DNA of 64,000 bases, from the NCBI GenBank assembly GCA_963820525.1, contig CAWGAA010000001.1, positions 640,001 to 704,000 of the forward strand, in the 5' to 3' direction. The notes beneath the pieces are model-generated. The model was not told the DNA's origin. It ran no database searches and saw only the letters and a list, made by a program, of their open reading frames with translations. Every line of letters starts with the position of its first letter. Positions within the stretch are counted from its first letter, which is position 1. This DNA is from an uncultured Spirochaetota bacterium. Its GTDB lineage: Bacteria > Spirochaetota > Spirochaetia > SZUA-6 > Fen-1364. Below, in pieces: positions 42,089-64,000 of the stretch. The translations under genes and the position numbers were made by a program.

Positions 42089-43324
42089 TTAAAGGCCATC
42101 TGCCGGGCTTGTCACTCCCAGCTTATTCTTTGTGGCAACATGTGTATAAATCATCGTGGTCGAGACATCCGAGTGCCCCATGAGCTCCTGAATGCTTCTT
42201 ATGTCGTATCCCTTCTCCACCAGGTGAGTCGCAAAACTATGCCGCAAAGTGTGTATAGTGGCGTGTTTTACTATCCCGGCCTCCCTGACGGCTCGTCTGA
42301 AAGCCTTTTGAAGGGTCGTCGCATATACGTGATGCCTGCGAATGACGTGCGTCATTGGATCTATTGAAAGATTTTCAGAAGGGAATACCCAAAACCAACC
42401 CCATTCTTTGCTGGCGCTGGTGTATTTCCTATCCAGTGCTGCAGGGACGGTTACTCCCGCTTCCAATTTCGCCCTGTCCTGATTGTAGATGATCCTGACT
42501 CGCTCGAGATGTTTTTTCAGCATTTCAACGAGCTTATCCGCAAGGATAGTTTCACGGTCTTTGTCTCCCTTGCCGGACCGTATCGTCAAGCAGTTTCTCT
42601 CGAAATCGACATCCTTTATTCGCAAGGACAGACACTCCTGCAGCCTGAGGCCGCCGCCATAGATCATCGTTGCCATCAAACGCGCAGTTCCTTTCAGCTG
42701 TTCAAGTATTCTCTTCACCTCTTCTTGTGCAAGAACCACAGGAAGTCTTCTTTGGATTTTCGAAGGGACAACGGTACTCAAAGAGTTAATCTCTATTCCC
42801 AGAACATTCCTGTAGATGAACAATAATGCGTTAAATGCGAGCCTCTGTGTTGCTGCCGATATCTTCTTTTCCACTGCAAGGTATGAAAGGAAGCTCTTTA
42901 AGTCTTGTTCCGTGATCTTTCCACATTCCTTTTCACTGACATACGATCGAAAACGCGCTATCCACGACATATAAGATTTTTCCGTCCGGAACGACAAATG
43001 CTTCAGCCTCATTATCCGAGAGACGCATTCTACCAATTTCTTCCATGTCATTGCTTCCGGGTTTGGAATAACGAGTACCTTTCTGACCACCTGCATCCCT
43101 TTGCATGACAGATAATAGTTGTAGAGCTGAATAGCATACCGAGCCTGCTTTACCTGCCAGTCTTCGTATTTCTTGCTAATATAGGAAATGAAGCCGTTGA
43201 AGTTCTGATTATCTTTCGAGAATTGCCTATAGTTCGTATATATCTCAACCCATTTCTGATAAGCGAGTCTGTCTTTCTCTCTAATGTCCGCTTTGGCCCT
43301 AAGGAACTCTAAGTAGGATGTCAT
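42089..43324 (-). CDS. intI: Integron integrase with N-terminal extension
   Basis: Tyrosine recombinase motifs YGGGLR, KGDKDR, HTLRHSFATH, MGH..TTMIY, plus IntI-specific insertion ALDRKY..EWGWFWVFPS..RRHH; divergent from cassette array. Confidence 0.96.
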   Translation of the reverse strand: MTSYLEFLRAKADIREKDRLAYQKWVEIYTNYRQFSKDNQNFNGFISYISKKYEDWQVKQARYAIQLYNYYLSCKGMQVVRKVLVIPNPEAMTWKKLVECVSRIMRLKHLSFRTEKSYMSWIARFRSYVSEKECGKITEQDLKSFLSYLAVEKKISAATQRLAFNALLFIYRNVLGIEINSLSTVVPSKIQRRLPVVLAQEEVKRILEQLKGTARLMATMIYGGGLRLQECLSLRIKDVDFERNCLTIRSGKGDKDRETILADKLVEMLKKHLERVRIIYNQDRAKLEAGVTVPAALDRKYTSASKEWGWFWVFPSENLSIDPMTHVIRRHHVYATTLQKAFRRAVREAGIVKHATIHTLRHSFATHLVEKGYDIRSIQELMGHSDVSTTMIYTHVATKNKLGVTSPADGL

Positions 43325-43449
43325 AACATGTCTCCTCTCGCTTTATAGAGCAGCACTAGAACACAACGCCCAAACCATTACTGCTGCTTGAGGAGATTTT
43401 GGAGATTATCCGTCGATCTTTAGGCTATGCGAACAACCCCAGCGGCAAC

Positions 43450-43483
43450 TTTTCGATAAAACTCTATAATATAAATGTTATAT
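43450..43483 (+). other. attI site (crossover G/TT at 43477/43478)
   Basis: GTTATAT core not preceded by an attC; similarity to cassette 21 begins at this core; left boundary approximate. Confidence 0.8.
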
Positions 43484-43763
43484 CCAATCTAGATTTATAT
43501 TGATTATCGAATAGGCAACGAATTAGTAATTCAATAAAAAGAGATAATACGTGTTTCAATAGCTTGTTTAACCATGATGGCGTTGGCATTGCTCTGGAAG
43601 GATGGCGGTGTTGTACTAATGTTGCTTGCTTGCTCTTAGTTTCAATACACTGCACGTCACCGTGGCTTAATGGTCAACGATTTCATTATAGGGCTCGGAT
43701 CAAGCTCTTTCTCTTGAAACAACAACTCTTTTCTGTTGTCCTCAACACCATCATACTGGATGG
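43478..43763 (+). ncRNA. Cassette 1: gene-less family A (candidate structured RNA)
   Basis: ATGATGGCGTTG (43574-43585) pairs with CAACaCCATCAT (43743-43754); one visible difference from cassette 21. Confidence 0.55.
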
Positions 43764-43959
43764 ATATAACATGCTGTTGGAGTTGTCCGCCTAGGCTACG
43801 CGTCGTTACTTATAGCTACGTTTGCTAGGGTTCCTTCGGTTGCTGATTCGGGGCGGCAACTCAACAGCGTCGTTAGCTGCTTCTTTATTTCTTTTACACA
43901 TTTTCCTAGTCTGTATTGGCTTTATTTTCTAGATATGATTTAATATTTGTAGCATTACA

Positions 43960-44421
43960 ATGCCAACCTTTAGAAAGGCTACTATTTCCGATATCGAATC
44001 TCTAATTTCCTTGCGCTTATCTTTTATAAATGAACTACATAAAGATTCTCCTGCTACAGACATTTCTTTGGAAACGGATCTGCGATCCTATTTCTCACAG
44101 AATATTAAAAGCAATCAGTTTATCGCTTGGCTAGCTATTGAAAATGACCAGATTATTGCTACTAGCGGATTGACTTTCTATCTATTACCACCCAATTCCA
44201 AGAATCCATCTGGCAAAGTAGCGTATATAATGAATATGTACACCCTGCCACATTTTAGGAACAAAGGCATTGCAAATGAATTATTTAAAAGAATTATTAA
44301 AGAAGCTCAATCACTTGGATATACGGAGCTATGCCTTCATGCAACAGAAATGGCAATTGGTATATATAAGAAATATGGTTTTATTGAACCACATGATAAG
44401 GAGTTGATGAAATATATTTGA
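43960..44421 (+). CDS. Cassette 2: GNAT acetyltransferase
   Basis: AYIMNMYTLPHFRNKGIA, LHAT...IYKKYGF. Confidence 0.9.
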   Translation: MPTFRKATISDIESLISLRLSFINELHKDSPATDISLETDLRSYFSQNIKSNQFIAWLAIENDQIIATSGLTFYLLPPNSKNPSGKVAYIMNMYTLPHFRNKGIANELFKRIIKEAQSLGYTELCLHATEMAIGIYKKYGFIEPHDKELMKYI

Positions 44422-44587
44422 AAATAAGTCGCAATCATTTCAGCAATAATAGAATTTATTAATGAATATTAAGAGAAGCAGCTAACATGTCGTTGCAGCT
44501 GACCGCCCAAGCTACGCGTCGTCACTTTATACTACGCGCACATACTCGTTTGCTTTTCCTAATGCGGGGCGGCAGCTGAACTCATTG

Positions 44588-46827
44588 TTATATCCATCTA
44601 AATTTATATTGATTAGTGAAGAAGCATCGGATTATTAATTCGATAATAATAAAAGACGTATTTCAATTGCCTATTTGCCTATGATGGCGTTGGCATTGCT
44701 CTGGAAGGATGGCTGTGTTGTACTACATTGCTTGCTTTTCTTTAGTTTCAGTACATGGCACGTCACCTCGGCTTGCCAACACCGATTGCATTCAACGGCT
44801 CGGATCAAGCTCCTTCAATTGATTAGATAGATCTTTTCTGCTTTCCTCAACGCCATCATACTGGATGGATATAACATGCTGTTGGAGTTGTCCGCCTAGG
44901 CTACGCATCGTTACTGATAGCTACGCGCGCTGAAGCATTTGTACTTGGATGATTCGGGGCGGCAACTCAACAGCGTCGTTATCTCCATCTAGATTTATAT
45001 TGATTAGTAAATAAGCAACCAATTATTAATTCAAGAATATTGGATAATACGTTTTTCAATAGCTTGCTTTCCCATGATGGCGTTGGCATTGAGCGGGAAG
45101 GATGGCTGTGTTGTACTAGTTTGCCTGCTTGTTTTTAGGTTCAATACACTGCGCGTCACCTTGGCTTATTGTCACCGATTACATTATAGGGCTCTGATCA
45201 AGCTCTTTTAATTGATTCGATTGCTCTTTTTCTGCATTCCTCAACGCCATCATACTGGATGGAGATAACATGTCGTTGCAGCTGACCGCCCAAGCTACGC
45301 ATCGTCACTTGAAACTACGCGCGCTCAGGTATTTCTTTTTTTTGAGGCGGGGCGGCAGCTGAACTCCTCGTTATCTCCATCTAGATTTATATTGATTAGC
45401 AATGAAGTTAAGAATTATTAATTAAATAATCTTGGATAAGACGCTTTTCAATTTCATGTTTGCCCATGATGGCGTTGGCCTTTCTCTGGAAGGATGGCGG
45501 TGTTGTACTAGGTTGCACGCTTGTTTTTAGTTTCAATGCATGGCACGTCACCTTGGCTTATTATCACCGATTACATTCAACGGCTCGAATCAAGCTCTTT
45601 CAATTGATTCGCTAGATCTTTTCTGCTTTCCTCAACGCCATCATACTGGATGGAGATAACATGTCGTTGCAGCTGACCGCCCAAGCTACGCGTCGTCACT
45701 TGAAACTATGCGTGCTCAGCTATTTCCTTTTTTTGAGGCGGGGCGGCAGCTGAACTCCTTGTTATATCCATCTAGATTTATATTAATTAGTGAAGAAGCA
45801 TAGGATTATTAATTCGAGAATAATAAAAGACGTTTTTCAATCGCTTATTTGCCTATGATGGCGTTGGCATTGCTCTGTAAGGATGGCGGTGTTGTACTAC
45901 ATTGCTTGCTTTTCTTTAGTTTCAATACTTTGCACGTCACCTCGGTTTGCCAACACCGATTACATTCAACGGCTCGGATCAAGCTCCTTCAATTGATTCG
46001 ATAGATCTTTTCTGCTTTCTTCAACGCCATCATACTGGATGGATATAACATGCTGTTGGAGTTGTCCGCCTAGGCTACGCGTCGTTACTGATAGCTACGC
46101 GCGCTGAAGCATTTGTACTTGTATGATTCGGGGCGGCAACTCAACAGCGTCGTTATATCCATCTCAATTTAAATTGATTATCAATAAAGCATTGAATTAT
46201 TAATTCAATAATATAGGATAAGACGCTTTTCAATTTCATATTTGCCCATGATGGCGTTGGTATTTGGCGGGAAGGTTGGCGGTGTTGTATTACCTTGCCT
46301 GCTTTTCTTTAGTTTCAATGTATGGCACGTCACCTTGGCTTATTGTCACCGATTACATTCTACGGCTCGGATCAAGCTCTTTCAATTGATTCGATAGATC
46401 TTTTCTGCTTTCCTCAACGCCATCATACTGGATGGATATAACCAGTCGTTGCAGCTGACCGCCTAGGCTACGCGGCGTTAGTGAAAACTACGCGTGCTCA
46501 ATCATCTGTTCTTTCCTGATTCGGGGCGGCAGCTGAACTCCATGTTATCTCCATCTAAATTTACTTTGATTAGCAATGAAGTAAGTAAATATTAATTCAA
46601 AGATCTTGTATAAGACGTTTTTCAATAGCTTGTTTGCCTATGATGGCGTTGGCATTGCTCTGCAAGGATGGCGGTGCTGTACTAGGTTGCATGCTTGTTT
46701 TTAGTTTCAATGCATGGCACGTCACCTTGGCTTATTATCACCGATTACATTCTACGGCTCGGATCAAGCTCTTTCAATTGATTCGCTAGATCTTTTCTGC
46801 TTTCCTCAACGCCATCATACTGGATGG
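44588..46827 (+). ncRNA. Cassettes 3-8: six tandem gene-less family A cassettes
   Basis: Bodies 44588-44868, 44979-45262, 45371-45653, 45762-46042, 46153-46435, 46545-46827, each followed by its own attC; all have the perfect 12-bp long-range IR. Confidence 0.55.
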
Positions 46828-46964
46828 AGATAACATGTCGTTGCAGCTGACCGCCCAAGCTACGCGTCGTTACCTGAAACTACGCGTGCTAAGGTATTTA
46901 ATTTTTTTGAGGCGGGGCGGCAGCTGAACTCCTTGTTAGCCCGCATTGAGATGGTCAGGTAGAT

Positions 46965-47504
46965 ATGAAAGCAGCTATTCTCGAGTGGATAGTGTCAATC
47001 CTGATTGAACATAAGAGCTTACTCTCCATCGCGATCAAACAGCGTTCAAAGTTCGAAGGATGGCTGAAGTATGAACTTGCTAGTCGTATGCTAGCAAAGG
47101 GTGCAACTAGCATGGAGGTAGAAGCAGCGTATCCAAGTTCAAAAACCAGATCCGACATCCATCTGAAAATAAGTGGCAAGGACTACTACATTGAACTAAA
47201 AACAGCGAACACAAATTGGAACATTAAAGGCACTACGAAAAAGGCGAAACCCATTACGATGAATGTGAACGGAATCATTAAAGATATCGAGAAGCTACGG
47301 TCACTATGCGATAGAGGAATTAGTGCGTTCATCTTGTTTCCGGTTCCCCTTGAAAAAGAGAAGTATTGGAAGTACATGGAACGCATTTCAAAAGAAACCA
47401 ACATTGATTTGTCCAAAACGTTGAAGTTCAGAACAATGACGACAAGTCTTGGAGGCAAAGACAAGGCTGATATCCTTATCTGCGTCTTAGAGGTGTCCAA
47501 CTAG
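46965..47504 (+). CDS. Cassette 9: PD-(D/E)xK nuclease-like hypothetical protein
   Basis: FEGWLKYE...RSDI...YYIELK arrangement. Confidence 0.6.
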   Translation: MKAAILEWIVSILIEHKSLLSIAIKQRSKFEGWLKYELASRMLAKGATSMEVEAAYPSSKTRSDIHLKISGKDYYIELKTANTNWNIKGTTKKAKPITMNVNGIIKDIEKLRSLCDRGISAFILFPVPLEKEKYWKYMERISKETNIDLSKTLKFRTMTTSLGGKDKADILICVLEVSN

Positions 47505-47763
47505 ACAGCAGCAGTATCGCTAGGATGACCATGATACGCAAATAGGGTCTACAGAGCTAGGAAAATAAAACGGGAAAGAACAGACAATTCGAAATAAGCG
47601 CAATGGGATAATCAGAAAGATGTCACGAAACCGCAAGGACAATAAAATCGGCTGCGGGCTAACAAGTCGTTGCAGCTGACGCCGGGAGTTCCAGCTGTTT
47701 CGATTGAGTTTGGTCTACCGTGGTCCTTCGGTTGCTGATTCGGCGGCGCAGCTGAACTCCATG

Positions 47764-48047
47764 TTATATCCAATCTAGATTTATATTGATTATCGAATAG
47801 GCAACGAATTAGTAATTCAATAAAAAGAGATAATACGTGTTTCAATAGCTTGTTTAACCATGATGGCGTTGGCATTGCTCTGGAAGGATGGCGGTGTTGT
47901 ACTACATTGCCTGCTTGTCTTTAGTTTCAAGGCATGGCACGCCACCTTGGCTTATTATCACTGATTACATTCTACGGCTTAGATCAAGCTCTTTCTCTTG
48001 AAACAACAACTCTTTTCTGTTGTCCTCAACGCCATCATACTGGATGG
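47764..48047 (+). ncRNA. Cassette 10: gene-less family A (mosaic)
   Basis: Ends match cassettes 1/21; middle 47905-47981 resembles cassettes 5/7/8. Confidence 0.55.
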
Positions 48048-48271
48048 ATATAACATGCTGTTGGAGTTGTCCGCCTAGGCTACGCGTCGTTACTTATAGC
48101 TACGTTTGCTAGGGTTCCTTCGGTTGCTGATTCGGGGCGGCAACTCAACAGCGTCGTTAGACGCGTATAGGCTATCGTTCGAGTGTCTTTTTTCCATAAC
48201 CTTGAGCAAATGCTTGATAATCTACAATCAAGTCTTTCGTAAATAATTTATTTGCACCTGGAAATTGTTTC

Positions 48272-48808
48272 ATGCATATAACTCTCATGAGACACTTCAA
48301 AGTTCAATATCATTGGAAACCCTCTTATACTTCCGATGAATATGCTTCAGCAGATGCGGAATACGACAATGCAGATGTAATTGACCAACAAATACATCTT
48401 TCCAAAGAATATACAATGATTTTCGTAAGTACTTTAAGGCGGACTCAACAGACATTATACTATTTGTTTGGAAATGTTCCTTTTAAACAAACAAACCTAT
48501 TAGATGAAGTTCGGCTAGCTCCTTTTATGTATTCTAGAATCCGTCTCCCTCTTCTTATGTGGCTTATCATGGGTAGAATACAATGGTTCTTAAATATTAA
48601 ACGCCAACCAGAGGCCAGAACAGATACTATAAGAAGAGCCGAAGATTTTATAAAGACGATAAAAGCGCTAAATGGAAATGTATTAATTATAGGTCATGGC
48701 TTCTTCCTAAGAGTACTGGCGAGTAAGATTATTGGAATGGGATTTGTAGGAAAGGCTTTCGATTATTTACATAATGGTGAATATCATACATATTATTTCA
48801 AATCCTGA
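48272..48808 (+). CDS. Cassette 11: histidine phosphatase-family protein
   Basis: LMRH, STLRRTQQT, LDEV, IGHG. Confidence 0.8.
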   Translation: MHITLMRHFKVQYHWKPSYTSDEYASADAEYDNADVIDQQIHLSKEYTMIFVSTLRRTQQTLYYLFGNVPFKQTNLLDEVRLAPFMYSRIRLPLLMWLIMGRIQWFLNIKRQPEARTDTIRRAEDFIKTIKALNGNVLIIGHGFFLRVLASKIIGMGFVGKAFDYLHNGEYHTYYFKS

Positions 48809-48975
48809 AAAATATTAAATACTTAAGACTCTTTTAGAAGCTTTATATTGTTTATAATTCTTATACGCGTCTAACAAGTCGTTGCAGTTGACCGCCTAAG
48901 TTACGTTTCTTTACTTGAGACTATGTTTGCTAAGTTCCTTCGGTTGCTGATTCGGGGCGGCAACTGAACTCCATG

Positions 48976-49305
48976 TTATATTCACGCATATTGAAGATTC
49001 TTAGATAATTTCAGTATTAGTTCCCTGTATACGTATGCTTGAGTATTGCTATCATAAAGGGCTTTTTTCCTATTTGAGTAATGTTGTGAGATTCACCTCT
49101 TTCATTTCTTTTCTTTCCTTTGCGCGGGCCCTGGTAGTCACTAGGTCAAAGCTCGCGCCACTCTTTTGGTGGCCTCTCTTACCTTTTAACCTTGTTTTCT
49201 TTCGTTCAAGGTTGAAGTCTAGATTCAACCTGTTGCGGTCAGCTTTTTTCACTCTCTTATAGTTCTCTGCATCGGCCCGCGCTAGTCTCTTATGTTTCCG
49301 CGTAA
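48976..49305 (+). ncRNA. Cassette 12: divergent gene-less family B
   Basis: Retains GCGCGGGCC (49122-49130), GCTCGCGC (49151-49158), GGCCCGCGC (49274-49282) and the TGTTTCCGCGTA end. Confidence 0.5.
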
Positions 49306-49447
49306 ATATAACAAGTCGTTGCAGCTGACCGCCTAGGCTACGCGTCGTTAGAAATAACTACGCTCGTTCAAGTATTTGTTCTTTCTTGATTCGGGGCGGC
49401 AGCTGAACTCCATGTTATCCGTTCATCAGAAAGGTGGTAACAAAATA

Positions 49448-50110
49448 ATGGCAATTGCTCAAGTTGTTCTTGAATATATCAAGATATTGATATGGCCCCT
49501 AAGTGTCTTTATTTTCGTAATTATCTTCCGCATTCCACTTATAGAATTCCTTAGAAAAGTTCGTCACGCTGATCTTCCAGGTGGGTTGTCGCTTGATCTA
49601 CAAGAAAATATTCTTGAAGCTAAAGAGCTATCGCGAAAAGTTCAGAAAGAATATCACCAACAAGATGATACTCAAAAGCCATCTATTCCATTAACAGAAG
49701 CCAATGCTAGAATAATTCAATTGGGCCTTATGCCCTCTCCAAGTGGCCTTGATATGAATTATTACCGTGCACTAGCAAATCAGGATCCAACACTGGCATT
49801 AGCTGGACTAAGAATTGAAATTGAAATATTGGCAAAGAACCTTGCAAAAGGATTTAAGGTTACTATCAGAACCAATGATTCAGGACATATTTTACTTAGG
49901 AAATTGGCAGATAGTGGCGCTATAACACAAAACCAATTTCGCCTTGCCGAAAGAGTATTGCAATTATGCAATATTGCAATTCACGGTCAATTTGTTTCAC
50001 TTGAACAGACTGATAAAATACTCGAAATATCAGATATCTTAGCAGAGCAATATATTTCTTGGCTTAGCTGGGGGTTTAGCGATAATTGGAAGCTAATGAA
50101 TGAAAAATAA
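49448..50110 (+). CDS. Cassette 13: hypothetical membrane-anchored protein with C-terminal HEPN/DUF4145-like segment
   Basis: RBS AAGGTGG; N-terminal TM (LIWPL); C-terminal LCNIAIHG resembles an RxxxxH motif. Confidence 0.6.
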   Translation: MAIAQVVLEYIKILIWPLSVFIFVIIFRIPLIEFLRKVRHADLPGGLSLDLQENILEAKELSRKVQKEYHQQDDTQKPSIPLTEANARIIQLGLMPSPSGLDMNYYRALANQDPTLALAGLRIEIEILAKNLAKGFKVTIRTNDSGHILLRKLADSGAITQNQFRLAERVLQLCNIAIHGQFVSLEQTDKILEISDILAEQYISWLSWGFSDNWKLMNEK

Positions 50111-50251
50111 CCAAAGTGATACATATTTTATCTTACATGAACGGATAACAAGTCGTTGCAGCTGACCGCCTAGGCTACGTTTCGTTGCAGCCAACTACGC
50201 TTACTAAAGTATCTGTTCTTTCTTGATTCGGGGCGGCAGCTGAACTCCATG

Positions 50252-51319: not shown

Positions 51320-51464
51320 ACATAACATGCGGTTGGAGTTGTCCGCCTAGGTTACGCGTCGTTACTGATTGTTACGCTTGCTATGGTTCCTTCGGTTGCT
51401 GATTCGGGGCGGCAACTCAACCGCGTCGTTAGACGGCAAAAGTTTTAAATAATAGAGGTGCAAT

Positions 51465-52315: not shown

Positions 52316-52627
52316 TTACATCCACGCTAATAATTTCTTTGAGAGAATATTTTGCCTATTCTGTTTTGAATTATTCAAAGCAAATAAAGAATTCGATTTA
52401 GCAATCTTGCAGGTTTTACTTTGTTGAATTCCTCTGATACTTTTGCGCGGGCCATGTAAGTTCCCATTGGAACAGCTTGCGCCCATTAGCTGAAAGGGCA
52501 TCATCAACTTTTAACATCATTTTCTTTCGCTATGCCCGAATTCTATCATCAATCAACTAACCTTATATTTTCTTCATATCGTGAAGCTTCTTTGCTGGCC
52601 CGCGCATATTGTTCTGTTTCCGCGTAG
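52316..52627 (+). ncRNA. Cassette 18: gene-less family B
   Basis: GCGCGGGCC 52445-52453 / GGCCCGCGC 52597-52605 plus a local GTTCC/GGAAC hairpin. Confidence 0.55.
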
Positions 52628-52783
52628 ATGTAACATGCGGTTGGAGCAGACCGCTTGGACTACGCGTCGTTACTGATTGCTACGCAAGTTAAAGTAATTG
52701 TACCTGTATGATACGGCGCGGCTGCTCAACCGCGTCGTTATGACGCCCAAATTTTCAGTAGCTTGAATTGCTAATCTGATGAC

Positions 52784-54365: not shown

Positions 54366-54681
54366 TTATATCCACGCTAAAGAAATTCTTTGTGAGAATA
54401 TTTTGCTTCTTCTGTTTTGAATTACTCAAAGCAAATGAAGAATTCTCTTTCACAATCTTGCGGGTTTTACCTTGTTGAATTCTTTTGATACCTGTGCGCG
54501 GGCCATCTACGTTCCTGTTGGAACAGCTCGCGCATGTTAGCAAAAGGGGCATTAATTACCTTTTTTAGCATCACTTTCTTTCGCTTTTCCTGAATTCTAT
54601 CATCAATCAACTAACCTGATATTTTATCCATATCGTGAAGCTTGTCCTTCGGCCCGCGCATATTGGTCTGTTTCCACGTAG
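54366..54681 (+). ncRNA. Cassette 22: gene-less family B
   Basis: GCGCGGGCC 54496-54504 / GGCCCGCGC 54651-54659. Confidence 0.55.
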
Positions 54682-54884
54682 ATATAACATGCTGTTGGAG
54701 TTGACCGCCTAGGCTACGCTTCATTACCAATAGCTACGGGCGGTAAAGCATTTTGTACTTGGATGATTCGGGGCGGCAACTCAACAGCGTCGTTAGGCAG
54801 TCCAAAATTTGAGCATCTCGCAGGCGTAGTGCCCGTCATCAACATGACTTGCCGTATTCCGCTCAGTCAAGTAGCATACTGCAC

Positions 54885-55385: not shown

Positions 55386-55639
55386 TATTGACTGCGGTTC
55401 TTCCCAAAGGGCATTGTCGCCGTGAAGTTGATTTCATTCACACGAAAGAGATGGGAATTGATGAATTAAAATGCAATTTGATCGAAAAAAAGATCTTCAG
55501 TAAGGAAAAGCAAATGATTTCAAATGGCCTGCCTAACAAGTCGTTGCAGTTGACGCCTTGAATTCTGTCTGAAAGATAGAGCGCTATCTGGTACAACTGT
55601 CACGGCTGGGGTGATTCGGCGGCGCAACTGAACTCCATG

Positions 55640-56377
55640 TTACATCCACGCTAATAATTTCTTTGAGAGAATATTTTGCCTGTTCTGTTTTGAATTATTC
55701 AAAGCAAATAAAGAATTCGATTTAGCAATCTTGCAGGTTTTACTTTGGTGAATTCCTCTGATACTTTTGCGCGGGCCATGTAAGTTCCCATTGGAACAGC
55801 TCGCGCTCATTAGCTGAAAGGGCGTTATTAACCTTTCTGGAATCGTATTCTTTCGCTATTGGTTGAATTCTATCATCAATCAACTAACCTTATATTTTTT
55901 TCATATCGTGAAGCTTCTTTGCTGGCCCGCGCATATTGTTCTGTTTCCGCGTAGATGTAACATGCGGTTGGAGCAGACCGCTTTGACTACGCATCGTTAC
56001 TGATAGCTACGCGTGTTAAAACCAATTGTACCTGGATGATGCGGCGCGGCTGCTCAACCGCGTCGTTACATCCACGCTAATAATTTCTTTGAGAGAATAT
56101 TTTGCCTGTTCTGTTTTGAATTATTCAAAGCAAATAAAGAATTCGATTTAGCAATCTTGCAGGTTTTACTTTGGTGAATTCCTCTGATACTTTTGCACGG
56201 GCCATGTAAGTTCCCATTGGAACAGCTCGCGCCCATTAGCTGAAAGGGCATCATCAACTTTTAACATTATTTTCTTTCGATATGCCCGAATTCTATTATC
56301 AATCAACTAACCTTATTTTTTCTTCATATCGTGAAGCTTCTTTGCTGGCCCGCGCATATTGTTCTTTTTCCGCGTAG
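55640..56377 (+). ncRNA. Cassettes 24-25: tandem gene-less family B
   Basis: Bodies 55640-55954 and 56066-56377, close to cassette 18 and sharing its attC variant. Confidence 0.55.
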
Positions 56378-57207
56378 ATGTAACATGCGGTTGGAGCAGA
56401 CCGCTTGGACTACGCATCGTTACTTATAGCTACGCGTGTTAAAACCAATTGTACCTGGATGATGCGGCGCGGCTGCTCAACCGCGTCGTTATGATTTGCG
56501 AGGCTTTCGACACGGAGGACTTATGGAAAAAAGTGGTGAGAACTCTCTTGATCAGATGATACAGTATATCAAGCAATGGCTTGAAACCAATCAGCGCAAC
56601 CAAATGGCTGTCAGACCGCTTACCGATATTCTAGAAGTGCTTGAGTGGGCAAAACAGACCATAGATGAACTTCAAAATGCACATAGTGCTACGGAAAGAC
56701 TCGGGACCCTATTTGTACAATTTGACAAGACTTATGGAACCCTAATTGAGTTCTTACCGCCGGCACCGCAGGTCAACATAGAAGGAATTGATAGGCTCGC
56801 TTCTGCTACAACCAGTCTCGCATCTTCAGGCCTGCTTGGAATATCCGGGTCCGTTTATCCAAACATGGGTCCGCAGTGGTTAGCCGGAAGGTTTAATGCC
56901 TTCGCAAAGATGCAGGAAAGGCACGAAACAATTTCTAAAGTACGGAAGCTCTTGCTTAAGCTCGAGGCGAAGAATTCCCACCCTCCCAATATCGTGGATG
57001 AATATGACTTGATGATAGAAAAGGGATTTTATTTTAGGGGAAATGAAATTGATCAGATAACCTCTGCCGGAATAACAATGAGAAATGTTCTTGAACACGT
57101 AAATGGCAAGCTTTTATCCCTTGTAGCATGGTCAAAAGGTGAGAAAAAGAAATGGTCTAAAATGGTTGAATTTCTCAAAGCCGATGCGCTCGCGCCAATT
57201 GAGCTAG

Positions 57208-58947
57208 CCCACATTTCTCACAAATAGCGTAGCTGAATCTCAAGAACGCATAGAATGTGCTTCGGTACTATTGGGATGAATCTTCAAAGCTGCGGGAGAC
57301 TCCGAAACCCACTTTTCAGATGTTTCAAGATCTCCTGCATGCCACATTCCGTGAAAAACGTCTTGAACTGTCCACAGAAGTGGACCTCAGGGCATAAGGA
57401 TCCCGCTGAGCTTATGCCTCGAGTGGGTAGTTCAGCTACCCGTCTGAAATACAGCCGTTCTGATTCGATAGATCGCCTGACGGAAGAGCTCTTGGTAGGG
57501 ATAGCCGCTTGCGAAGCTCACATAGATGCGACGTACGCTCAGACGGACCTGCGCGCCGATCTTCAACACCTTCAGCCGAATCGTGTCACACTGCGCAGTG
57601 GCAAGCTCCGTACCCTTCAAGGCAATCCTTCGCAACGCGCTCATGATCAGGTATGCCACGGAGGAAAACCACAACCGCAGCTGGTTTGCCCTCATCGTCG
57701 CGGAGCTGGTCCGGTCCGCGAAAAGGTAGAGTTGTTGTTCCTTGATACGGTTTTCCATGTCCCCTCGGGCGCAGTATAGATCCTCATAGAGTACTTGAGC
57801 AGGGAACCGGTCCTGAGGGAGGGAGGTGACGACAAACCGCGGGTTCTCCCCCTTGAGCAGGTACTCCGCTTTGGCAACAACGCGCCTGCTTTTCGACCAG
57901 GTCTTCTTCGTGCGGTACATCAACTCGGCGTATCTTCGCTGCGGCAGCCCCGTGGATATGCACTGCCGCCTGGATTCGGATAGTTGCCGACGGATCTTGC
58001 GCAACAAACGCTGGTTTTTCGCGATTCCGAACAGGAAATCCACGTCGTTTCCCTCGCACCAGCTCATGATCGCTTCACGGCAGAACCCGCTGTCTGCCCG
58101 TGCAATAATGCGCACATCAGGCCACCGCTCCCGGATCTGGGCCACGATTCTGGCCAACTCCACCTCGGCGCCCGCGCTGGCATCTATATTCGAAGGGCGC
58201 AACTTTGCGCACAAGAGATGGTCGCCGCAGAAGATGTACAGCGGCAGGTAGCAGTAGCAATCGTAGTAGCCATGGAAGAACCTGCCTTCCTGCTCCCCAT
58301 GCACGGGATCGTCGGTGGCATCAAGATCAAGCACGATTTCCGCGGGGGGCTGCTGGAAGGAGTCCAGAAAGGCATTCACCAGGAACATCTCCACCATAGT
58401 ATGGTTGACCGTGATTTTCTTGTACCGGTGTGTGAATAGACTCGTCCCGCCGCTTGTCTCTAAACGGTTCAGGGTGCTCTTTCCGGCAAGAGCGTTTCCC
58501 TTATCCCGGTTCTGCCGTCTGTTTTCCCCGCTCACATCCAGTTTCCCGCACACGGCGGCAAGAACGGGATCTTTTCTCAGCCGGTCATGATCGTTGAGGT
58601 CTTCGTAGCCAAGGCATATGCCGAATACTCTTTGGCTGATCAATTCCTCAACTGTGTGTTCGATATAGCCTTTCTCGCGGTAGTCGGTAAAGCAGTCAGC
58701 AAACGCCTTTATGAATCCCGTGGCCTGCTCAAGCTCTCTGAGAATAAGCGCGCCAGCATCTGAGCTGATCGTGCCCCCATCGAAGTTAGCGACGACCTTT
58801 TTCTCTCCGAGGTCTTGAAAGCTGAATAAGGATGGAGTACAGTCTGTTTGCATCGTTTGGCCTTTCATTCCTTGTATATTCTGTTTGTGGCAAAGCAATT
58901 ATACCAGAGTGAAAGGCCTTTTTGTATCTATTTGTGAGAAATGCGGG
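57208..58947 (-). mobile_element. Complete IS1380-family element
   Basis: IRs CCCACATTTCTCACAAATAG / CTATTTGTGAGAAATGCGGG (19/20); CTAG duplication at 57204-57207 and 58948-58951. Confidence 0.92.
57432..58853 (-). CDS. IS1380-family transposase
   Basis: FDGGTISSDAG, GYEDLNDHD, LDLDATDDPVHG, RADSGF, YCARGDMENRIKE. Confidence 0.94.
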   Translation of the reverse strand: MQTDCTPSLFSFQDLGEKKVVANFDGGTISSDAGALILRELEQATGFIKAFADCFTDYREKGYIEHTVEELISQRVFGICLGYEDLNDHDRLRKDPVLAAVCGKLDVSGENRRQNRDKGNALAGKSTLNRLETSGGTSLFTHRYKKITVNHTMVEMFLVNAFLDSFQQPPAEIVLDLDATDDPVHGEQEGRFFHGYYDCYCYLPLYIFCGDHLLCAKLRPSNIDASAGAEVELARIVAQIRERWPDVRIIARADSGFCREAIMSWCEGNDVDFLFGIAKNQRLLRKIRRQLSESRRQCISTGLPQRRYAELMYRTKKTWSKSRRVVAKAEYLLKGENPRFVVTSLPQDRFPAQVLYEDLYCARGDMENRIKEQQLYLFADRTSSATMRANQLRLWFSSVAYLIMSALRRIALKGTELATAQCDTIRLKVLKIGAQVRLSVRRIYVSFASGYPYQELFRQAIYRIRTAVFQTGS

Positions 58948-59322
58948 CTAGAGCTTCTTCTTGATCAGGAAAATATCTGGGAGCACCTTCATTCAACCCT
59001 ATCGGACATGGCAAAGCATATGTCAGAAGTAGATATCCGCATGATTGCTGTCCAAGTAGTAATGCATCTATTTGTATCGCTCTCACTTTTAAAGTTGTGA
59101 TTTTGCCTGTTTCGGCGCAAATCATAACAAGTCGTTGCAGTTGACCGCCTAATTTATGTTTCGTTACTCGAGACTACGTTTGCTAATGTCCTTCGGTTGC
59201 TGATTCGGGGCGGCAACTGAACTCCATGTTATCTTGCCATAGTAAATACCCAGTTGTGCATTTTTCATGCCATTGCATTTGTTTTAAGAATTCATCACAA
59301 CATTAAGCATGATTACCATATG

Positions 59323-59351
59323 TTGACACTGTGCGCACAATGGGGTATATT
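59323..59351 (+). promoter_or_regulatory. TA promoter with palindromic operator
   Basis: TTGACA-17-TATATT; TGTGCGCACA palindrome at 59330-59339 in the spacer. Confidence 0.75.
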
Positions 59352-59359
59352 CCTTATTG

Positions 59360-59638
59360 ATGCAGTTCGCCTTTGACAAGGAGAAGAATGACCTTCTTTA
59401 TAAACGGCGTGGGGTAACTTTTCCCATGGTAATTGAGGCGATTGCAGATAAGGGAATTCTATTGAATTTTGATCACCCAAATCAATTGAAATATCCAAAC
59501 CAAAAGGTACTTGTTGTTGATTTGGAAGGATATGCATACTGCGTACCTTATATTATTCAAGGAACTACTTGGTTCTTGAAAACGATCTATCCAAGCAGAC
59601 GTTTCAAGTACCTAATCGAAGGAGAAACCAATGGATAG
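59360..59638 (+). CDS. Cassette 27: BrnT-like toxin
   Basis: FDKEKN..RGVTF..HPNQ.KYPNQ..YAYCVPY..FLKTIYPSR. Confidence 0.8.
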   Translation: MQFAFDKEKNDLLYKRRGVTFPMVIEAIADKGILLNFDHPNQLKYPNQKVLVVDLEGYAYCVPYIIQGTTWFLKTIYPSRRFKYLIEGETNG

Positions 59639-59933
59639 ATATAATCCGAAATACATTGACCGTGAAGAGAAAGATCTCATGCAAGACATTGACAAAATAG
59701 ATCTCCGTAAGGTTAGAAAGCCGACCCAAAAGGTACAAGGACAACTCAGGAGAGCTGCAAAGAGGCACCTAGAAAAAGAATTGAAAATGAATATTAGAAT
59801 TGACCCCTATGAATTATCAAAGATTAAAGAAAAGGCAGAAATGGAAGGATTAAAATACCAAAGCCTCGTAAAGAGCGTACTACACAAATACATTACTGGC
59901 CAATTGATTGAAAAAGGGAAAAAAGCTGTATAG
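59631..59933 (+). CDS. Cassette 27: RHH/CopG-type antitoxin
   Basis: MNIRID..LSKIKEKAEMEGLKYQSLVKSVLHKY; overlaps toxin stop. Confidence 0.8.
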   Translation: MDRYNPKYIDREEKDLMQDIDKIDLRKVRKPTQKVQGQLRRAAKRHLEKELKMNIRIDPYELSKIKEKAEMEGLKYQSLVKSVLHKYITGQLIEKGKKAV

Positions 59934-60134
59934 GAATTATGGCTAAAATCTTATTATTAAAATAGATAAATGGCAAGATAACATGCGGTTGGAGTTGTCC
60001 GCCTAGGCTACGTTCATCAACAGTAAGCTAAGTTTGCTAGGGCCCTTCGGTTGCTGATTCGGGGCGGCAACTCAACCGCGTCGTTATGACGCCTCAAGAT
60101 TTGGCCGATTGAGGCAAACGGACTGGAATGCCTC

Positions 60135-60174
60135 GGGGAAGAGGGTCAGGCGTCCATGCCTGACCCTCTTCCCC
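60135..60174. repeat. Perfect 17-bp hairpin
   Basis: GGGGAAGAGGGTCAGGC-gtccat-GCCTGACCCTCTTCCCC. Confidence 0.8.
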
Positions 60175-60245
60175 TCATTGGTATCATTCGAGACCTCTAT
60201 CTCCGAACTATAATCAAATATACCGAATCGCCTTGTGAGGGCTCC

Positions 60246-60274
60246 TTGACTATACATACCAATAATGGTATGTT
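60246..60274 (+). promoter_or_regulatory. TA promoter with palindromic operator
   Basis: TTGACT-17-TATGTT with TG extension; IR ACATACCA (60254-60261)/TGGTATGT (60266-60273). Confidence 0.7.
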
Positions 60275-60279
60275 TCGAC

Positions 60280-60612
60280 ATGCAATATGAAGTCGTATTG
60301 TTGGAGCCTGCAACGGACTTCCTACGCAACCTCGAGGGGAAGCTGCAAGCAAAAGCGTTCCGATCAATCGAACTTCTAGGGCATTTTGGAACACAATTGA
60401 TCATGCCGCACTCCAAAAAGCTCAGCGGATACGATCTGTGGGAATTGCGGGTTCGACATGCAGGCATGATCTGCCGACTATTCTATTTCCACGATCGGGA
60501 TAGGATCTTTGTTGTGACTTCTGGATATGTTAAGAAGAGTGACAGGACTAATCCAAAGGAGATAAAGAGGGCACTCCGGCTTAAGATGGAGCACCTTGGA
60601 GGGACCACATAA
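60280..60612 (+). CDS. Cassette 28: RelE/ParE (HigB/Gp49-like) toxin
   Basis: MPHSKKL..LWELRV...RLFYF..GYVKKS.RTNPKEIKRA. Confidence 0.88.
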   Translation: MQYEVVLLEPATDFLRNLEGKLQAKAFRSIELLGHFGTQLIMPHSKKLSGYDLWELRVRHAGMICRLFYFHDRDRIFVVTSGYVKKSDRTNPKEIKRALRLKMEHLGGTT

Positions 60613-60905
60613 TGAAGCAGACTCGATATGAGGATTTGCTCAACCGTCAATTGAAGAACCCTCAGTTCCGGAAAGAATATGAAGCGTTAGAGGGTGAGTT
60701 CACCCTGGCAAAAGAAATAATCGCACTTCGTATCAAGAATAGACTTACGCAGAAACAACTCGCACAGCAAATCGGAACCTCCCAGCCCGCCATTGCTCGG
60801 ATTGAATCTGGTAGCTACCGGAATGTCTCGCTCTCATTTCTTAGGCGGATCGCAGATGCACTTGGAGCCGTGCCGGAAATACATCTGAAAAAGAAAGGTG
60901 CATGA
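60612..60905 (+). CDS. Cassette 28: XRE-family HTH antitoxin (HigA-like)
   Basis: LTQKQLAQQIGTSQPAIARIESG; TAATG coupling. Confidence 0.88.
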   Translation: MKQTRYEDLLNRQLKNPQFRKEYEALEGEFTLAKEIIALRIKNRLTQKQLAQQIGTSQPAIARIESGSYRNVSLSFLRRIADALGAVPEIHLKKKGA

Positions 60906-61167
60906 GCGCTATTACAACCGTGAGCTGAATAGCTTTCCACGCCCTCGCCATCCCTGGCTCGGGCGCATGTCCTGATAGATAGCGGAAGCGCTGACAATTT
61001 GTAGACGATCCATATTGGAGTCGTCATAACATGCTGTTGGAGTTGACCGCCTAGGCTATGCGTCGCTTAGCTATAGCTACGCTCATTGAAGCCTTTGTAC
61101 TTGGATGATTCGGGGCGGCAACTCAACAGCGTCGTTATGCCGTCTTGAGATTGATGGAGGTGTCAAA

Positions 61168-62013
61168 GTGAGTGAGTACTTCCTGCAAGTTGAATACTGG
61201 CCTCAAAAGCTGCCGAATGCGCATCGAGAGCTACTGAAAGGAATCATCAGGAACATTTCTACACGTTCAGATCTACTAGGACTGGCCATCGGTGGTTCCT
61301 TCATATCCGGAGAAATGGACGAGTATTCAGACCTGGACCTAAAGGTTGTTGCGAACGCAAAGGAATGGCAAGCGGTAAACGAAGCTCGGAAGCAGATAGC
61401 CGCGTCCGTCGGCCCCTTGCTCGCTACATTCACGGCGGAGCATATTGGCGTTCCACAGATGCTCATATGCCTGTATGGCGAGCTTCCCATACATGTAGAT
61501 CTGGACTTCATGGTTCCTGAGCAATTTGCTTCAAGGCCGGAGGATCCGGTGATACTGTGGGATCGCAACGGGATGTTGCATGCCGTATTGTCCCACAGCA
61601 AACCATACTCAACGTCGGTGGACTGGCAGTGGATCGAAGATAGGTTTTGGACTTGGATACACTACGTAGCAACAAGAGTCGCACGGGGAGAATTGTTTGA
61701 AACGATTCGATTCCTGTCACTTATAGGAGAGAAAGTACTGGGGCCGATAGCTGTCGAGATCTCAGGTGGCAAGTCACACGGGCTACGTCGTTTTGAGCAG
61801 ATTGCAGGCAAATACCTGGACCCAATACGATCAACAGTCGTCTCCTACAATAGGGATGAGATGGTTCAAGCGCTTTTCAACGTGGTGGATATCTACAGGT
61901 CCTTTCGGAAGAACCATGCACCAGGTACCCTGAGAATGAACGAGAAAGCGGAAGAAGTAGTCATTCTCTATCTTGAGAACATATCAAGGCAAGTCGCTAC
62001 AGAGACGGCATAA
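61168..62013 (+). CDS. Cassette 29: nucleotidyltransferase-domain protein (lincosamide/aminoglycoside NTase-like fold)
   Basis: GGS...DEYSDLD, HVDL, RGELFE; GGAGGT RBS before GTG; stop lies within the attC R'' box. Confidence 0.75.
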   Translation: MSEYFLQVEYWPQKLPNAHRELLKGIIRNISTRSDLLGLAIGGSFISGEMDEYSDLDLKVVANAKEWQAVNEARKQIAASVGPLLATFTAEHIGVPQMLICLYGELPIHVDLDFMVPEQFASRPEDPVILWDRNGMLHAVLSHSKPYSTSVDWQWIEDRFWTWIHYVATRVARGELFETIRFLSLIGEKVLGPIAVEISGGKSHGLRRFEQIAGKYLDPIRSTVVSYNRDEMVQALFNVVDIYRSFRKNHAPGTLRMNEKAEEVVILYLENISRQVATETA

Positions 62014-62309
62014 CATGCTGTTGAACTTGACGCCTTAACCTTAGGGCAGCCATCGCTGCCTGTGTTCGTAGAACATAATTGCGATGGGCTTCGTGTCGGC
62101 GGCGCAAGTTAACAGCGTCGTTATCTCCCCCAAGGGAGCATTCAAGTGCGATTGTCAAGACCTCGCACAATTAGCGATTTCGGCATCTTGCACCTGTCGA
62201 CAGGCTGACCAGTCTGCAGATTGGCGATTTTAATTTGCCTATGTTCTTACTGACCCAAATCGATTGAAGTACGCTTAGGCATTGCACCTTAGCGTTCAGG
62301 GAGAATCCG

Positions 62310-62838
62310 ATGAAGTTTGATCTGACCCTAAACTGGCAGTCCGTGTTGACCCTTGCCGCCTTGCTTTCATCATGGACAATTCCCCTTTTGCTCGACTTTC
62401 TTCGGAGACGAAGGCAGTCGGATATTGTCCGCAAGAGTATCTCTTTATATCTTGATTCACTCGAGATCAAAGCTAGGCTTTGGCTGCGCTTCTATTTTGA
62501 CGGGGACGTAAAACTTCCCAAAGGAAGGAGATCGTTTGAATACACAAACAAGCAAAATCACGACGCGTTGGAGTGACCTGTTCCGTTCAAGTGATCTCGG
62601 CAACTTGGAGAAGGAGGAGTTGCTGAAATTCGTCCAGTACTTTAAGGCCTCACAGGAAATGAGGTCCCAGGAAGACTTCAAAAAATACGTTTCCCGGATA
62701 GGTGACGAATCGCTTAGGCAAGTGTTTCCGCAGGGCCCCCACTTTCAGAATATACTAAGGACTACCGCCAAGGCAATGTCTGCTTCTCATAGGTTGGCCG
62801 CTCGACAAGCCGGGGCCACAGTTCCTCGTCGCAGGTAG
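62310..62838 (+). pseudogene. Cassette 30: hypothetical membrane-anchored protein, probable frameshift near 62574
   Basis: Two overlapping ORFs (..NHDALE* and DLFRSSDLGNL..) that join with a single-base shift. Confidence 0.55.
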
Positions 62839-63123
62839 CGCATTCATAGATGCCGCGATTCTATCGATCATCGTGGGTCAATTACGAAATGCGGGAGATA
62901 ACATGCTGTTGGAGTTGACCGCCTAGGCTATGCTTCGTAACCAATAGCTACGCGCATTAAAGCATTTGTACTTGGATGATTCGGGGCGGCAACTCAACAG
63001 CGTCGTTATGTCTCTCTATTTTTGGATAACGGGCGCTGTAAGGTATACTCACTGGCAGCATCCCAGATTACCACTTGCAGAACATCAGTCGTGGTGGTAA
63101 GTTTATATTGAAAGGAGAGATCT

Positions 63124-63978
63124 GTGAGATTCAACATCGTTAGTCTATCAATCATTCTATCAATCTTTGCAACATCCACATGGGCACAGACCAACGTTGA
63201 GACTTATGGGGTCACCTATAGGACAATAGATGGCAAAGAGCTTCAAATGGATATTCAGAGGCCTCAACCTGTGGGTGTTCCGAAACCAGTAATCGTATTT
63301 CTTTGCGGTAACGGCTGGGGATATGAGAGGACTATAAACCGCGAATCATTCTGGTATGCTCTGGACCTTGCTAATGAACATGGATATGTCGCAGTCACCG
63401 TAGACTACAGCTCATCAGCGCAGAACTCCAACGGCAGGCCAATTGGAACTTTTCCGTCCCAAATCTATGACGTTAAAAGTGCTATACGCTTTCTGAAGGC
63501 AAATGCAAAGCAGTACGATATCGATCCAACTCGGATTGGAGTCATTGGCTTCTCATCAGGAGGAAACTTGGCGCTGCTACTCGCGCTTACGCTTCCGGCA
63601 GATGGACTCGAGGGGCATGACGACTATCTCCAGTATTCCAGCTCAGTGCAAGCCGTTGTCAATCTTTCGGGGGCAACAGATCTAGTTAGTTGGAATAAAG
63701 AGCCATTTGTCAGTGCATATTTGGGAGGCTCTCTTCAGGCAAAGCCAGAACAATACAAGAGAGCTAGTCCCATCAACTATGTGAAGCCAGGCATGGCGCC
63801 GGTCTTAACCATCCATGGGGAAAAGGATATGATTGTCTCCCCCGATCAGGCACGGATGCTTGACGCGCGAATGAAAGAAGTGGGCGCGTCTCACACTTTG
63901 ATTATTAAAAGTGACTTAGGTCATAATGATGAGATTGATCAGAATGTATGGGATTTCTTGGAGAAAGCTCTAAAATAA
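63124..63978 (+). CDS. Cassette 31: secreted alpha/beta hydrolase (HSL-like esterase)
   Basis: Signal peptide, FPSQIYDVKSAIRFL, GFSSGG, IHGEKD, GH; AAGGAG RBS. Confidence 0.88.
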   Translation: MRFNIVSLSIILSIFATSTWAQTNVETYGVTYRTIDGKELQMDIQRPQPVGVPKPVIVFLCGNGWGYERTINRESFWYALDLANEHGYVAVTVDYSSSAQNSNGRPIGTFPSQIYDVKSAIRFLKANAKQYDIDPTRIGVIGFSSGGNLALLLALTLPADGLEGHDDYLQYSSSVQAVVNLSGATDLVSWNKEPFVSAYLGGSLQAKPEQYKRASPINYVKPGMAPVLTIHGEKDMIVSPDQARMLDARMKEVGASHTLIIKSDLGHNDEIDQNVWDFLEKALK

Positions 63979-64000
63979 CTTATCGGCGTAAAAGGACGAA

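Follow-up and report, generated by a model that had tools for sequence, protein, structure and literature searches.

What fills an integron array in which most of the cassettes carry no gene? The question is raised by a window of 64,000 nt (the whole stretch of DNA analyzed; G000:C1:640001-704000, i.e. positions 640,001 to 704,000 of contig CAWGAA010000001.1 in assembly GCA_963820525.1) from an uncultured member of the Spirochaetota (SZUA-6; Fen-1364), which contains an integrase gene followed by a cassette array rich in two families of gene-less cassettes, designated here A and B. The role of gene-less cassettes, and the reason why some arrays fill with them, have been open since 2006. In this locus two unrelated families converged on one layout, in which a closing inverted repeat is the sole strongly kept feature of the cassette body, so that selfish spread, promoter function and RNA function become separable as explanations. 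Judged from the sequences, A and B are, with a rough probability of 0.45, self-amplifying, non-autonomous non-coding cassettes resembling miniature inverted-repeat transposable elements (MITEs) and travelling as passengers of one sedentary chromosomal integron. This agrees with the second of two options offered by an earlier sequence-only reading of the window, "selfish structured cassettes". If the two families are integron parasites, they would impose a cost and a rearrangement load on "gene-capture" arrays.

Integron platform and attC sites

The integron integrase gene intI occupies positions 42089..43324 on the minus strand (coordinates without prefix are those of the window). Its product matched the Pfam families PF00589 (Phage_integrase) and PF13495 (SAM_4) and the NCBIfam model TIGR02249, the latter with 410 bits at a cut-off of 265 and with model positions 3-315 of 315 covered; the closest IntI relatives, at 57-58% identity, are encoded in Spirochaetia metagenome-assembled genomes (MAGs). 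Counted from the first ATG, IntI has 411 aa and the TIGR02249 match spans residues 99-411; the approximately 95 residues preceding the matched region represent either an N-terminal extension or a start codon that lies further in. The gene is divergent from the array, as in canonical integrons and in contrast to the Treponema integrons (PMC6557892). The putative attI region was placed at 43440..43483 on the + strand with the recombination point G|TT at 43477/43478: the first cassette begins at 43478 with TTATATCC, immediately 3' of ...AAATG, this first G|TT lies 153 nt past the intI start codon on the opposite strand, and every cassette reads on the + strand.

The cassettes were parsed by a regular-expression search for R' ends from 43478 to 63005, with a partial cassette reaching 64000, and the inverse core sites sought were R'' (RYYYAAC) and R' (GTTRRRY) connected by an imperfect bottom-strand hairpin with bulged bases. 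The pattern search in the window returned 30 R' ends and 27 R'' starts, and the attC sites were 113-119 nt long. Their bottom strands fold into an R stem, a short spacer, an L stem with single bulges and a variable loop, with z values of -6.35, -5.22, -3.24 and -1.98 for four folded sites; an example is the attC of cassette 3 (44866..44984, + strand, about 115 nt, from R'' ATATAAC to R' GTTATCT; z = -6.35), for which 0/200 shuffles folded as well. With an integron-type tyrosine recombinase IntI, attC sites, an attI beside intI and a single cassette orientation, the locus is an integron. The 5' end of a cassette can base-pair with the stretch that ends in the R'' of the same cassette. This complementarity exceeds the 7-nt core sites, and where two A or B cassettes adjoin, the attC stem thus reaches 12-13 bp already in the linear state of the array. 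An outer complementarity of 11-13 nt was considered as a hallmark of the two families and rejected, since 33 of the 40 gene cassettes examined have at least 10 nt (10-13) of it.

Two cassette families with one layout

The window holds 30 complete cassettes (43478 to 63005) and one cut by the window end, 31 altogether, with 13 members of family A and five of family B, in counts and positions identical to those of the sequence-only reading. The A cassettes (numbers 1, 3-8, 10, 14-16, 20 and 21) are 391-395 bp long, typically ~392 bp, and the B cassettes (12, 18, 22, 24 and 25) are 422-439 bp long, typically ~423 bp; all lie on the + strand. Family A begins with the attI-proximal cassette 1 (43478..43872, 395 bp), which is 99.7% identical to a copy 163 positions away, and continues with a run of six consecutive cassettes, 3-8 (44588..46935), each one different from the others (44588-44978, 44979-45370, 45371-45761, 45762-46152, 46153-46544 and 46545-46935). 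The remaining A members are cassette 10 (47764..48156), cassettes 14-16 (50252-50643, 50644-51035 and 51036-51428) and cassettes 20-21 (53580-53970 and 53971-54365). Family B is represented by cassette 12 (48976..49414), which belongs to a divergent 439-bp subfamily, cassette 18 (52316..52737), cassette 22 (54366..54792) and cassettes 24-25 (55640-56065 and 56066-56488).

A shared layout without shared sequence, proposed from the letters alone, was confirmed by measurement. Cassettes of both families consist, in the same order, of a ~12-nt half of the attC stem, an AT-rich leader, a left arm, a core and a right arm, and no common sequence was found between the two kinds of body (their local alignment scored 18, shuffles 19.7 +/- 2.4). 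In family A the leader measures 81-83 nt (25% GC), the arms 13 nt (~50% GC) and the core 153-156 nt; in family B the leader is 112-134 nt (29% GC), the arms are 9-10 nt (89-100% GC) and the core is 143-146 nt. The left arm reads ATGATGGCGTTG(G) in family A and (T)GCGCGGGCC in family B, and the right arm is its complement in each case, stopping 2 nt short of the attC stem in A and ~16 nt ahead of it in B. As examples, the left arm ATGATGGCGTTG of A cassette 3 at 44681..44692 is the exact reverse complement of the right arm CAACGCCATCAT at 44848..44859, and a gap of 2 nt separates the latter from the 12-13-nt stretch that leads into R'' and is paired with the 5' end of the cassette; in B cassette 24 the left arm GCGCGGGCC lies at 55769..55777 and the right arm GGCCCGCGC at 55924..55932, ~16 nt before the attC stem. 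Counts in the window were 24 for the A arm 12-mer (0.02 expected) and 12 for the B arm 9-mer (1.9 expected). Compared with the gene cassettes, such an inner, long-range perfect inverted repeat near attC, 11-13 bp long and enclosing ~150 nt, is a peculiarity of A and B: when perfect repeats with an arm close to attC were measured, the longest one came to 6-10 nt, and was AT-rich, in 53/53 gene cassettes, and to 11 nt in 20/36 B cassettes.

Consensus structures were obtained from alignments of 43 of the 44 unique A copies (one straddles the locus edge) and of 26 B copies. For family A, RNAalifold gave 40 consensus pairs. Apart from the stem of attC and the arms with their 13 pairs, these make up three further helices, namely a leader hairpin of 4 bp, a 10-pair core helix and another 4-bp hairpin. 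A structured core, also part of the proposed layout, found weak support, with ~14 consensus pairs kept in the A core.

Both families are gene-less, as had been read from the sequence. Among single-base codon differences the synonymous share is 0.16-0.31 across all six frames, and the recurrent open reading frame (ORF) of family A is broken in 13/44 unique copies. By the measures used by Boucher 2006 they are non-coding, with no ORF >150 bp (the A ORF spans 135-150 nt from its ATG in most copies and runs to 72 codons in two unique ones), no translated match in a protein search made on the A ORF only, and no synonymous-site pattern.

Distribution and relatedness of the copies

Delimited in the whole genome, the array extends from C1:683478 to 824370, i.e. 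over 140.9 kb, with about 174 cassettes (169 when R' was required to read GTTA, 174 when GTTN was allowed). As many as 105 of them (60%; 66 A and 39 B) belong to the two families, occupying 57.9 kb. The GC content of the array is 37-53%, about 40% in the A/B-rich part, compared with about 60% for the genome, and a genome-wide nhmmer search found full-length A and B in this array and on the + strand exclusively. The copies are mostly distinct: 44 of the 57 standard-length A and 26 of the 34 standard-length B are unique, with body identities of 73-100% (median 84%) and 54-100% (median 79%), respectively, and 69 other cassettes are interleaved with them. The further opinion that gene-less cassettes are usually a minority has to be qualified: Vibrio arrays contain 6-49% of non-coding cassettes; V. 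vulnificus CMCP6, where 107/219 cassettes are non-coding and one family has 45 copies, is a published exception (Boucher 2006; PMC1382264).

Relatedness and position of the copies point to copying of single cassettes. Identical cassettes fall into 19 groups, 16 belonging to A or B and three to gene cassettes, which make 30 pairs, and in 28/30 pairs both neighbors differ. When 89 of the 91 standard-length copies, those with a paralogue aligned over at least 90% of the length, were compared, the identity to the nearest paralogue had a median of 99.7% and 55/89 copies had a twin at >=99%; the median distance between twins was 52 positions and 0/89 twins were adjacent. Near-identical twins lying far apart, with different neighbors, indicate copying cassette by cassette. 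In addition, covariation links the 5' end of an A cassette to the R'' side of that cassette (AU in 21 copies, CG in 15), and the same holds for family B (CG 19 and UA 7; a second pair CG 13 and UA 9), as expected if each cassette had been cut out and closed on itself.

New cassettes enter an integron at attI. Family A occupies 7/8 first positions next to it, a further claim of the sequence-only reading that the whole-array data upheld: the enrichment has a post hoc hypergeometric P of 0.005, and all seven copies are mutually different. Along the whole array A and B are intermingled with the gene cassettes at random (74 runs observed, 80.5 +/- 6.1 expected).

Proposed spread as passengers of the integron

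Each A or B unit has its own working-type attC, its own co-varying end, near-identical copies scattered through the array, and no coding signal. In the model of strand-specific excision in integrons, the donor copy is left in one daughter chromosome. The two families would be multiplied by excision and re-insertion of single cassettes, catalyzed by IntI: since excision would act on one folded strand, the donor copy would survive in one of the daughter chromosomes, and re-insertion of the excised cassette would raise the copy number. Short bodies of this kind, which would be free of cost, may simply be tolerated by the host. The one strongly selected feature of the body would be the GC-richer perfect inverted repeat with its right arm abutting the attC stem, which probably originated independently in both families. 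It may act in the single-stranded state, either in the cassette DNA or in a read-through transcript, closing the body into a compact fold beside attC, and a promoter effect of the AT-rich leader on neighboring cassettes, if there is any, would be secondary.

Several observations weigh against this explanation. Identical twins could be made by gene conversion between copies, without any movement. No mobility advantage is visible in the recombination site, the attC of A and B folding no better than that of gene cassettes (-24.0, -23.5 and -23.7 kcal/mol for A, B and gene cassettes, respectively; P = 0.94, 154/172 cassettes scored), so that a better attC was rejected as the source of such an advantage. 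Furthermore, bodies stripped of the stems folded with mean z values of -1.27 on the + and -0.22 on the - strand in family A (8 copies) and of -2.2 and -1.8 in family B (5 copies; simple shuffle); in these small samples the A body thus folds no better than shuffled sequence on the bottom, recombining strand, which leans to a top-strand RNA. One-sided changes in helix 4 of the A consensus mostly preserve G-U pairs that are possible on the + strand only, the G-U or G-C pair being kept in 15 cells and broken in 9. Finally, the invariant columns are slightly clustered across the whole body, in family A (106 runs against 122.5 +/- 7.4; P = 0.017) and likewise in family B (116 runs against 131.3 +/- 7.6; P = 0.026), and mobility alone does not explain this clustering.

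MITEs, such as the Correia elements of Neisseria, are short, non-coding, bounded by inverted repeats and multiplied by an enzyme encoded elsewhere, and they possibly carry promoters. Cassettes A and B differ from them in several respects: their movement would use IntI and attC instead of a transposase acting on the inverted repeats, no target duplication flanks the arms, and the bodies occur only inside one array and in one orientation, so that they are not MITEs in the strict sense.

Amplified non-coding integron cassettes as such are already known from Vibrio, and the present array is one more example, in a new phylum. One V. vulnificus non-coding family is present in 45 and 34 copies in two strains, with homologues within vibrios only, and selfish elements or a promoter/RNA function were proposed as explanations (PMC1382264). 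Like A and B, the Vibrio cassettes are complete, have neither an ORF nor a codon-position pattern, form many paralogues per array and have homologues in near relatives only (PMC1382264). In contrast to them, A and B come from the Spirochaetota, are unrelated in sequence and make up a larger share of the array (105 of about 174). The occurrence of two unrelated families with one layout and a perfect, GC-richer inverted repeat near attC also sets them apart, by description, from the Vibrio cassettes, the consulted portion of Boucher 2006 containing no such layout; the term "secondary structure" has 0 occurrences in that paper (PMC1382264). Titles and abstracts of the literature on non-coding or ORF-less cassettes and on spirochaete chromosomal integrons yielded no account of a closing inverted repeat in gene-less cassettes.

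Possible promoter function

The best-surviving alternative to spread as passengers, which we regard as possible, if clearly less probable, is that A and B are promoter cassettes, in which transcription would begin in the leader or elsewhere in the body, with neighboring cassettes driven or silenced by it, in an array too long to be served by the platform promoter Pc. Such an activity has been demonstrated elsewhere: sense-strand promoter activity was measured in most of 29 gene-less Vibrio cassettes (Blanco 2024; PMC11014356) and was also found in ORF-less Treponema cassettes from an oral metagenome (Tansirichaiya 2019; PMC6557892). The Vibrionaceae promoter cassettes resemble A and B in being gene-less, AT-rich and interspersed in a very long array, and their size is 400-670 bp (PMC11014356). 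The Treponema integrons likewise belong to a spirochaete and contain ORF-less cassettes (13/63), one of them in the first array position, although these are a minority and do not form amplified families (PMC6557892). The leaders of A and B, with their 25-29% GC, would fit such a function, and in that of family A a hypervariable spacer separates two conserved blocks, TTGATT and TATTAAT, at a distance of ~18 nt, an arrangement that looks promoter-like, though without the final T of the -10 element.

The signals themselves speak against it. Between 43300 and 57000 there were 29 promoter-like sites, compared with 36.4 +/- 6.0 in shuffles, and none on the + strand within an A leader. A scan with a position weight matrix, built on sigma-70 frequencies, found no + strand site common to at least 40% of the copies in A or B; the best shared site was antisense, in the A core (29/44 copies), where variable columns coincide with the key positions, the A of -10 and the TTG of -35. 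The negative scan weighs little, given that promoter prediction is said to fail for gene-less Vibrio cassettes (Blanco 2024; PMC11014356). A preferential placement of A and B upstream of genes was also rejected, since 37/64 gene cassettes are preceded by one of them, a proportion expected by chance (39.8 +/- 3.1). Promoter function also leaves unexplained both the inverted repeat and the run of six A cassettes without a gene to drive. In the Vibrionaceae the activity was measured, and in A and B no conserved sense-strand promoter consensus was found; in addition, some of the Vibrio promoter cassettes are decayed genes (PMC11014356), and the A ORF has no protein match. Should A and B nevertheless be promoters, or RNAs, this would alter the view of how a 141-kb array is expressed.

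Possible RNA function

It is less probable still, and on the whole unlikely, that the array is a library of stem-closed non-coding RNAs transcribed from their own leaders and acting in trans (as decoy, antisense or anti-phage RNAs) or in cis as a 5' stabilizer, with the variable segments as specificities. A library of functional RNAs was the first option of the sequence-only reading, and it fared poorly. A search of Rfam over 42000-64000 on both strands gave 0 matches at E<=1, and no described RNA family was thus matched. Two-sided changes were limited to 3/40 pairs in family A, two of them in the attC stem and one resting on a single sequence in the 4-bp hairpin, and to 5/28 pairs in family B, where the attC stem and a 3-bp hairpin of the poorly aligned leader account for two each and a 2-bp hairpin for one. 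Across 42 distinct copies, the 13 A arm pairs were invariant in nine cases, one-sidedly changed in one and broken in single copies in three, with 0 compensated; seven of the 10 B arm pairs were invariant and again 0 compensated among the 26 unique copies. The covariation in A did exceed the shuffle control (0/500), and this was driven by the attC stem pair at columns 5/293 (AU 21, CG 15). Compensatory changes, the kind of evidence for which the sequence-only reading had asked, were thus almost confined to the R stem of attC; the power of the test is limited, as the copies are paralogues of one genome.

The folds of single copies were of modest stability, with z values of -1.76 for A (9/200 shuffles as good) and -2.45 for B (1/100) as + strand RNA and of -1.85 and -2.36, respectively, as - strand DNA, and both nested stems were kept in all four centroids (A and B, + and - strand). 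Terminator-like sites showed no excess (9 against 12.4 +/- 3.8 in shuffles), a conserved sense sigma-70-like promoter was missing, as described above, and no body match of at least 15 nt that could mark a trans target was found outside the array beyond chance, nor any match in phages or plasmids.

Some features do favor an RNA. The arms, which can pair only in a single strand, are the best-kept feature of the body in two unrelated families, and the better folding of A on the + than on the - strand and the preserved G-U or G-C pairs of helix 4, given above, go in the same direction. By one reading of the alignment, the 439-bp subfamily has exchanged the hairpin that follows the left arm of B for another one in that position. 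A precedent also exists in sRNA-Xcc1 of Xanthomonas campestris, an ORF-less integron cassette that makes a trans-acting RNA (cited in PMC6557892); there, however, a single cassette with a demonstrated transcript is concerned, and here about 105 copies. All in all, the arms are real and kept, the core was not shown to be structured, and there is a slight lean to the + strand. The more specific notion that the integron keeps and copies self-promoted, stem-closed RNAs on two convergent scaffolds, serving as decoys or guides or as cis stabilizers of the transcripts of downstream cassettes, must be rated as somewhat more doubtful again. If the array is indeed an RNA library, cassette arrays would store RNA functions as well as genes.

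Possible peptide coding

Very improbable is the coding of a small hydrophobic peptide (MMALALLWKDGG..., 45-49 aa) by family A; in this reading the long-range stem would block the start codon, in the manner of type I toxin mRNAs, and an antisense RNA would come from the internal minus-strand promoter-like site. Its ORF starts exactly at the left arm of A, the right arm follows shortly 3' of the stop codon, and the frame is open for at least 45 codons in 28/44 unique copies; moreover, the minus-strand sigma-70-like site is present in 29/44 A copies, and toxin-antitoxin cassettes are common in such arrays, e.g. the MazE/PIN pair at 52784-53430. Against coding, the frame of the recurrent 49-codon ORF has a synonymous share of 0.245, no better than the other five, the ORF is cut to 21-40 codons in 13/44 copies and cannot be placed in three, in which the arm differs, one-base indels shift its frame, and the substitutions are not conservative (LLW to SGK or GGK). 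No Shine-Dalgarno sequence was visible upstream by inspection, and a search, covering the A ORF only, found no homologue among 26-86-aa proteins in a collection of 5.8 billion clusters. Family A thus lacks a conserved small hydrophobic ORF under purifying selection, the mark of a type I toxin-antitoxin system. No ORF is common to the family B copies, so that a peptide leaves the shared layout unexplained.

Occurrence elsewhere and integrity of the assembly

Outside the genome, A and B were found only as near-identical metagenomic copies, which, together with the many paralogues in the array, places them among paralogous non-coding cassettes. None of 24 genomes of the same family (many incomplete, with 60-99% completeness) contained A or B, no full-length match was found in 400 genomes of the phylum (20-41-nt matches at chance level in 14/400), and 80 loci beside IntI relatives gave 0 matches, many of those contigs ending at intI with the arrays outside view. 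The arm-gap-arm pattern occurred in two metagenome loci, L141 and L142. The latter was rejected as a homologue, being a coincidence inside a GC-rich ORF. The former, a JGI contig, carries an A copy with 387/391 positions identical to cassette 3, preceded by a VapC-like cassette and followed by the beginning of a B12-type one, a third setting for the cassette 3 variant.

That the repeats are mis-assembled or inflated is hardly credible, even with 105 copies of 390-440-bp repeats at 73-100% identity in one contig, because the copies are mostly distinct (44/57 A and 26/34 B unique) and interleaved with the 69 other cassettes, independent contigs from four runs of three studies cover A/B pieces and cassette junctions, and L141 holds a gene cassette, an A and the start of a B in one piece. 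In the contigs of the four runs, from freshwater sediment and wetland, the A/B pieces show 0-1 differences, and the loose ends coincide with cassette boundaries. Some gene cassettes lacked coverage in two of the runs, which, with contigs as the material compared, does not count as their absence, nor do the depths rank the cassettes. The junction of a B12-type cassette with an A cassette, present at a deeper position of the array, recurs in one independent contig, and one wetland run holds the intI region at about 94-97% identity.

Among related spirochaetes, loci L087 and L075 also have cassette arrays. In the second of these, on a Spirochaetia MAG chromosome with an IntI 50% identical to the present one, 3-5 copies of a ~578-bp cassette lie next to attI (L075:5600-9850); these cassettes seem to encode a small hydrophobic protein on the opposite strand.

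Gene cassettes, insertions and fusions

The remaining cassettes of the window carry a GNAT, a histidine phosphatase, a MazE/PIN pair, a Gp49/helix-turn-helix (HTH) pair, a DUF6933 protein, an alpha/beta hydrolase and one insertion sequence. Gene cassette 2 (43873..44587, + strand), with a GNAT acetyltransferase at 43960-44421 (PF00583), is an ordinary gene cassette standing between A/B copies. Likely toxin-antitoxin cassettes are found amid the gene-less ones: besides the MazE and PIN pair, these are a CopG-like pair at 59357-59933 and the Gp49 and HTH pair at 60265-60905. A 488-aa DDE transposase (PF13701, E 5e-158; 57432-58898, minus strand) lies inside the 2.7-kb cassette 26 (56489-59228), indicating that an insertion sequence landed in the array.

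Nine partial A/B matches in the array are interruptions by insertion sequences or fusions, and a docking of cassettes at a single nucleotide was rejected as their origin. Insertions of 1.0-2.5 kb interrupt one A and two B copies (G000:C1:788031-789439, 730969-733916 and 771170-772709), with short cassette stretches of about 12, 11 and 5 nt duplicated on both sides, as with insertion sequences. Two paralogous 3.2-kb cassettes (G000:C1:743309-746545 and 753382-756617) end in the last ~265 nt of an A body plus attC, the head being absent, and may have arisen when a gene cassette and an A cassette fused, the intervening attC having been lost. At G000:C1:706948-708335, directly 3' of the upstream R' GTT, the initial ~30 nt of an A cassette are replaced by an element in which a TnpA-like ORF of IS200/IS605 type (family assigned by eye) is accompanied by a GC-rich terminal hairpin. 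An IS30-like transposase ORF of 338 aa (family named by eye from its HTH and DDE motifs) is present in eight copies beyond the window, e.g. at G000:C1:762107-763123 (minus strand); all are on the minus strand and start ~150 nt before the cassette end, just upstream of attC, which suggests a site-preferring insertion beside attC. Further small clusters with the same attC type and without A or B bodies are located outside the main array, at G000:C1:1956606-1967481 and G000:C2:539536-541690.

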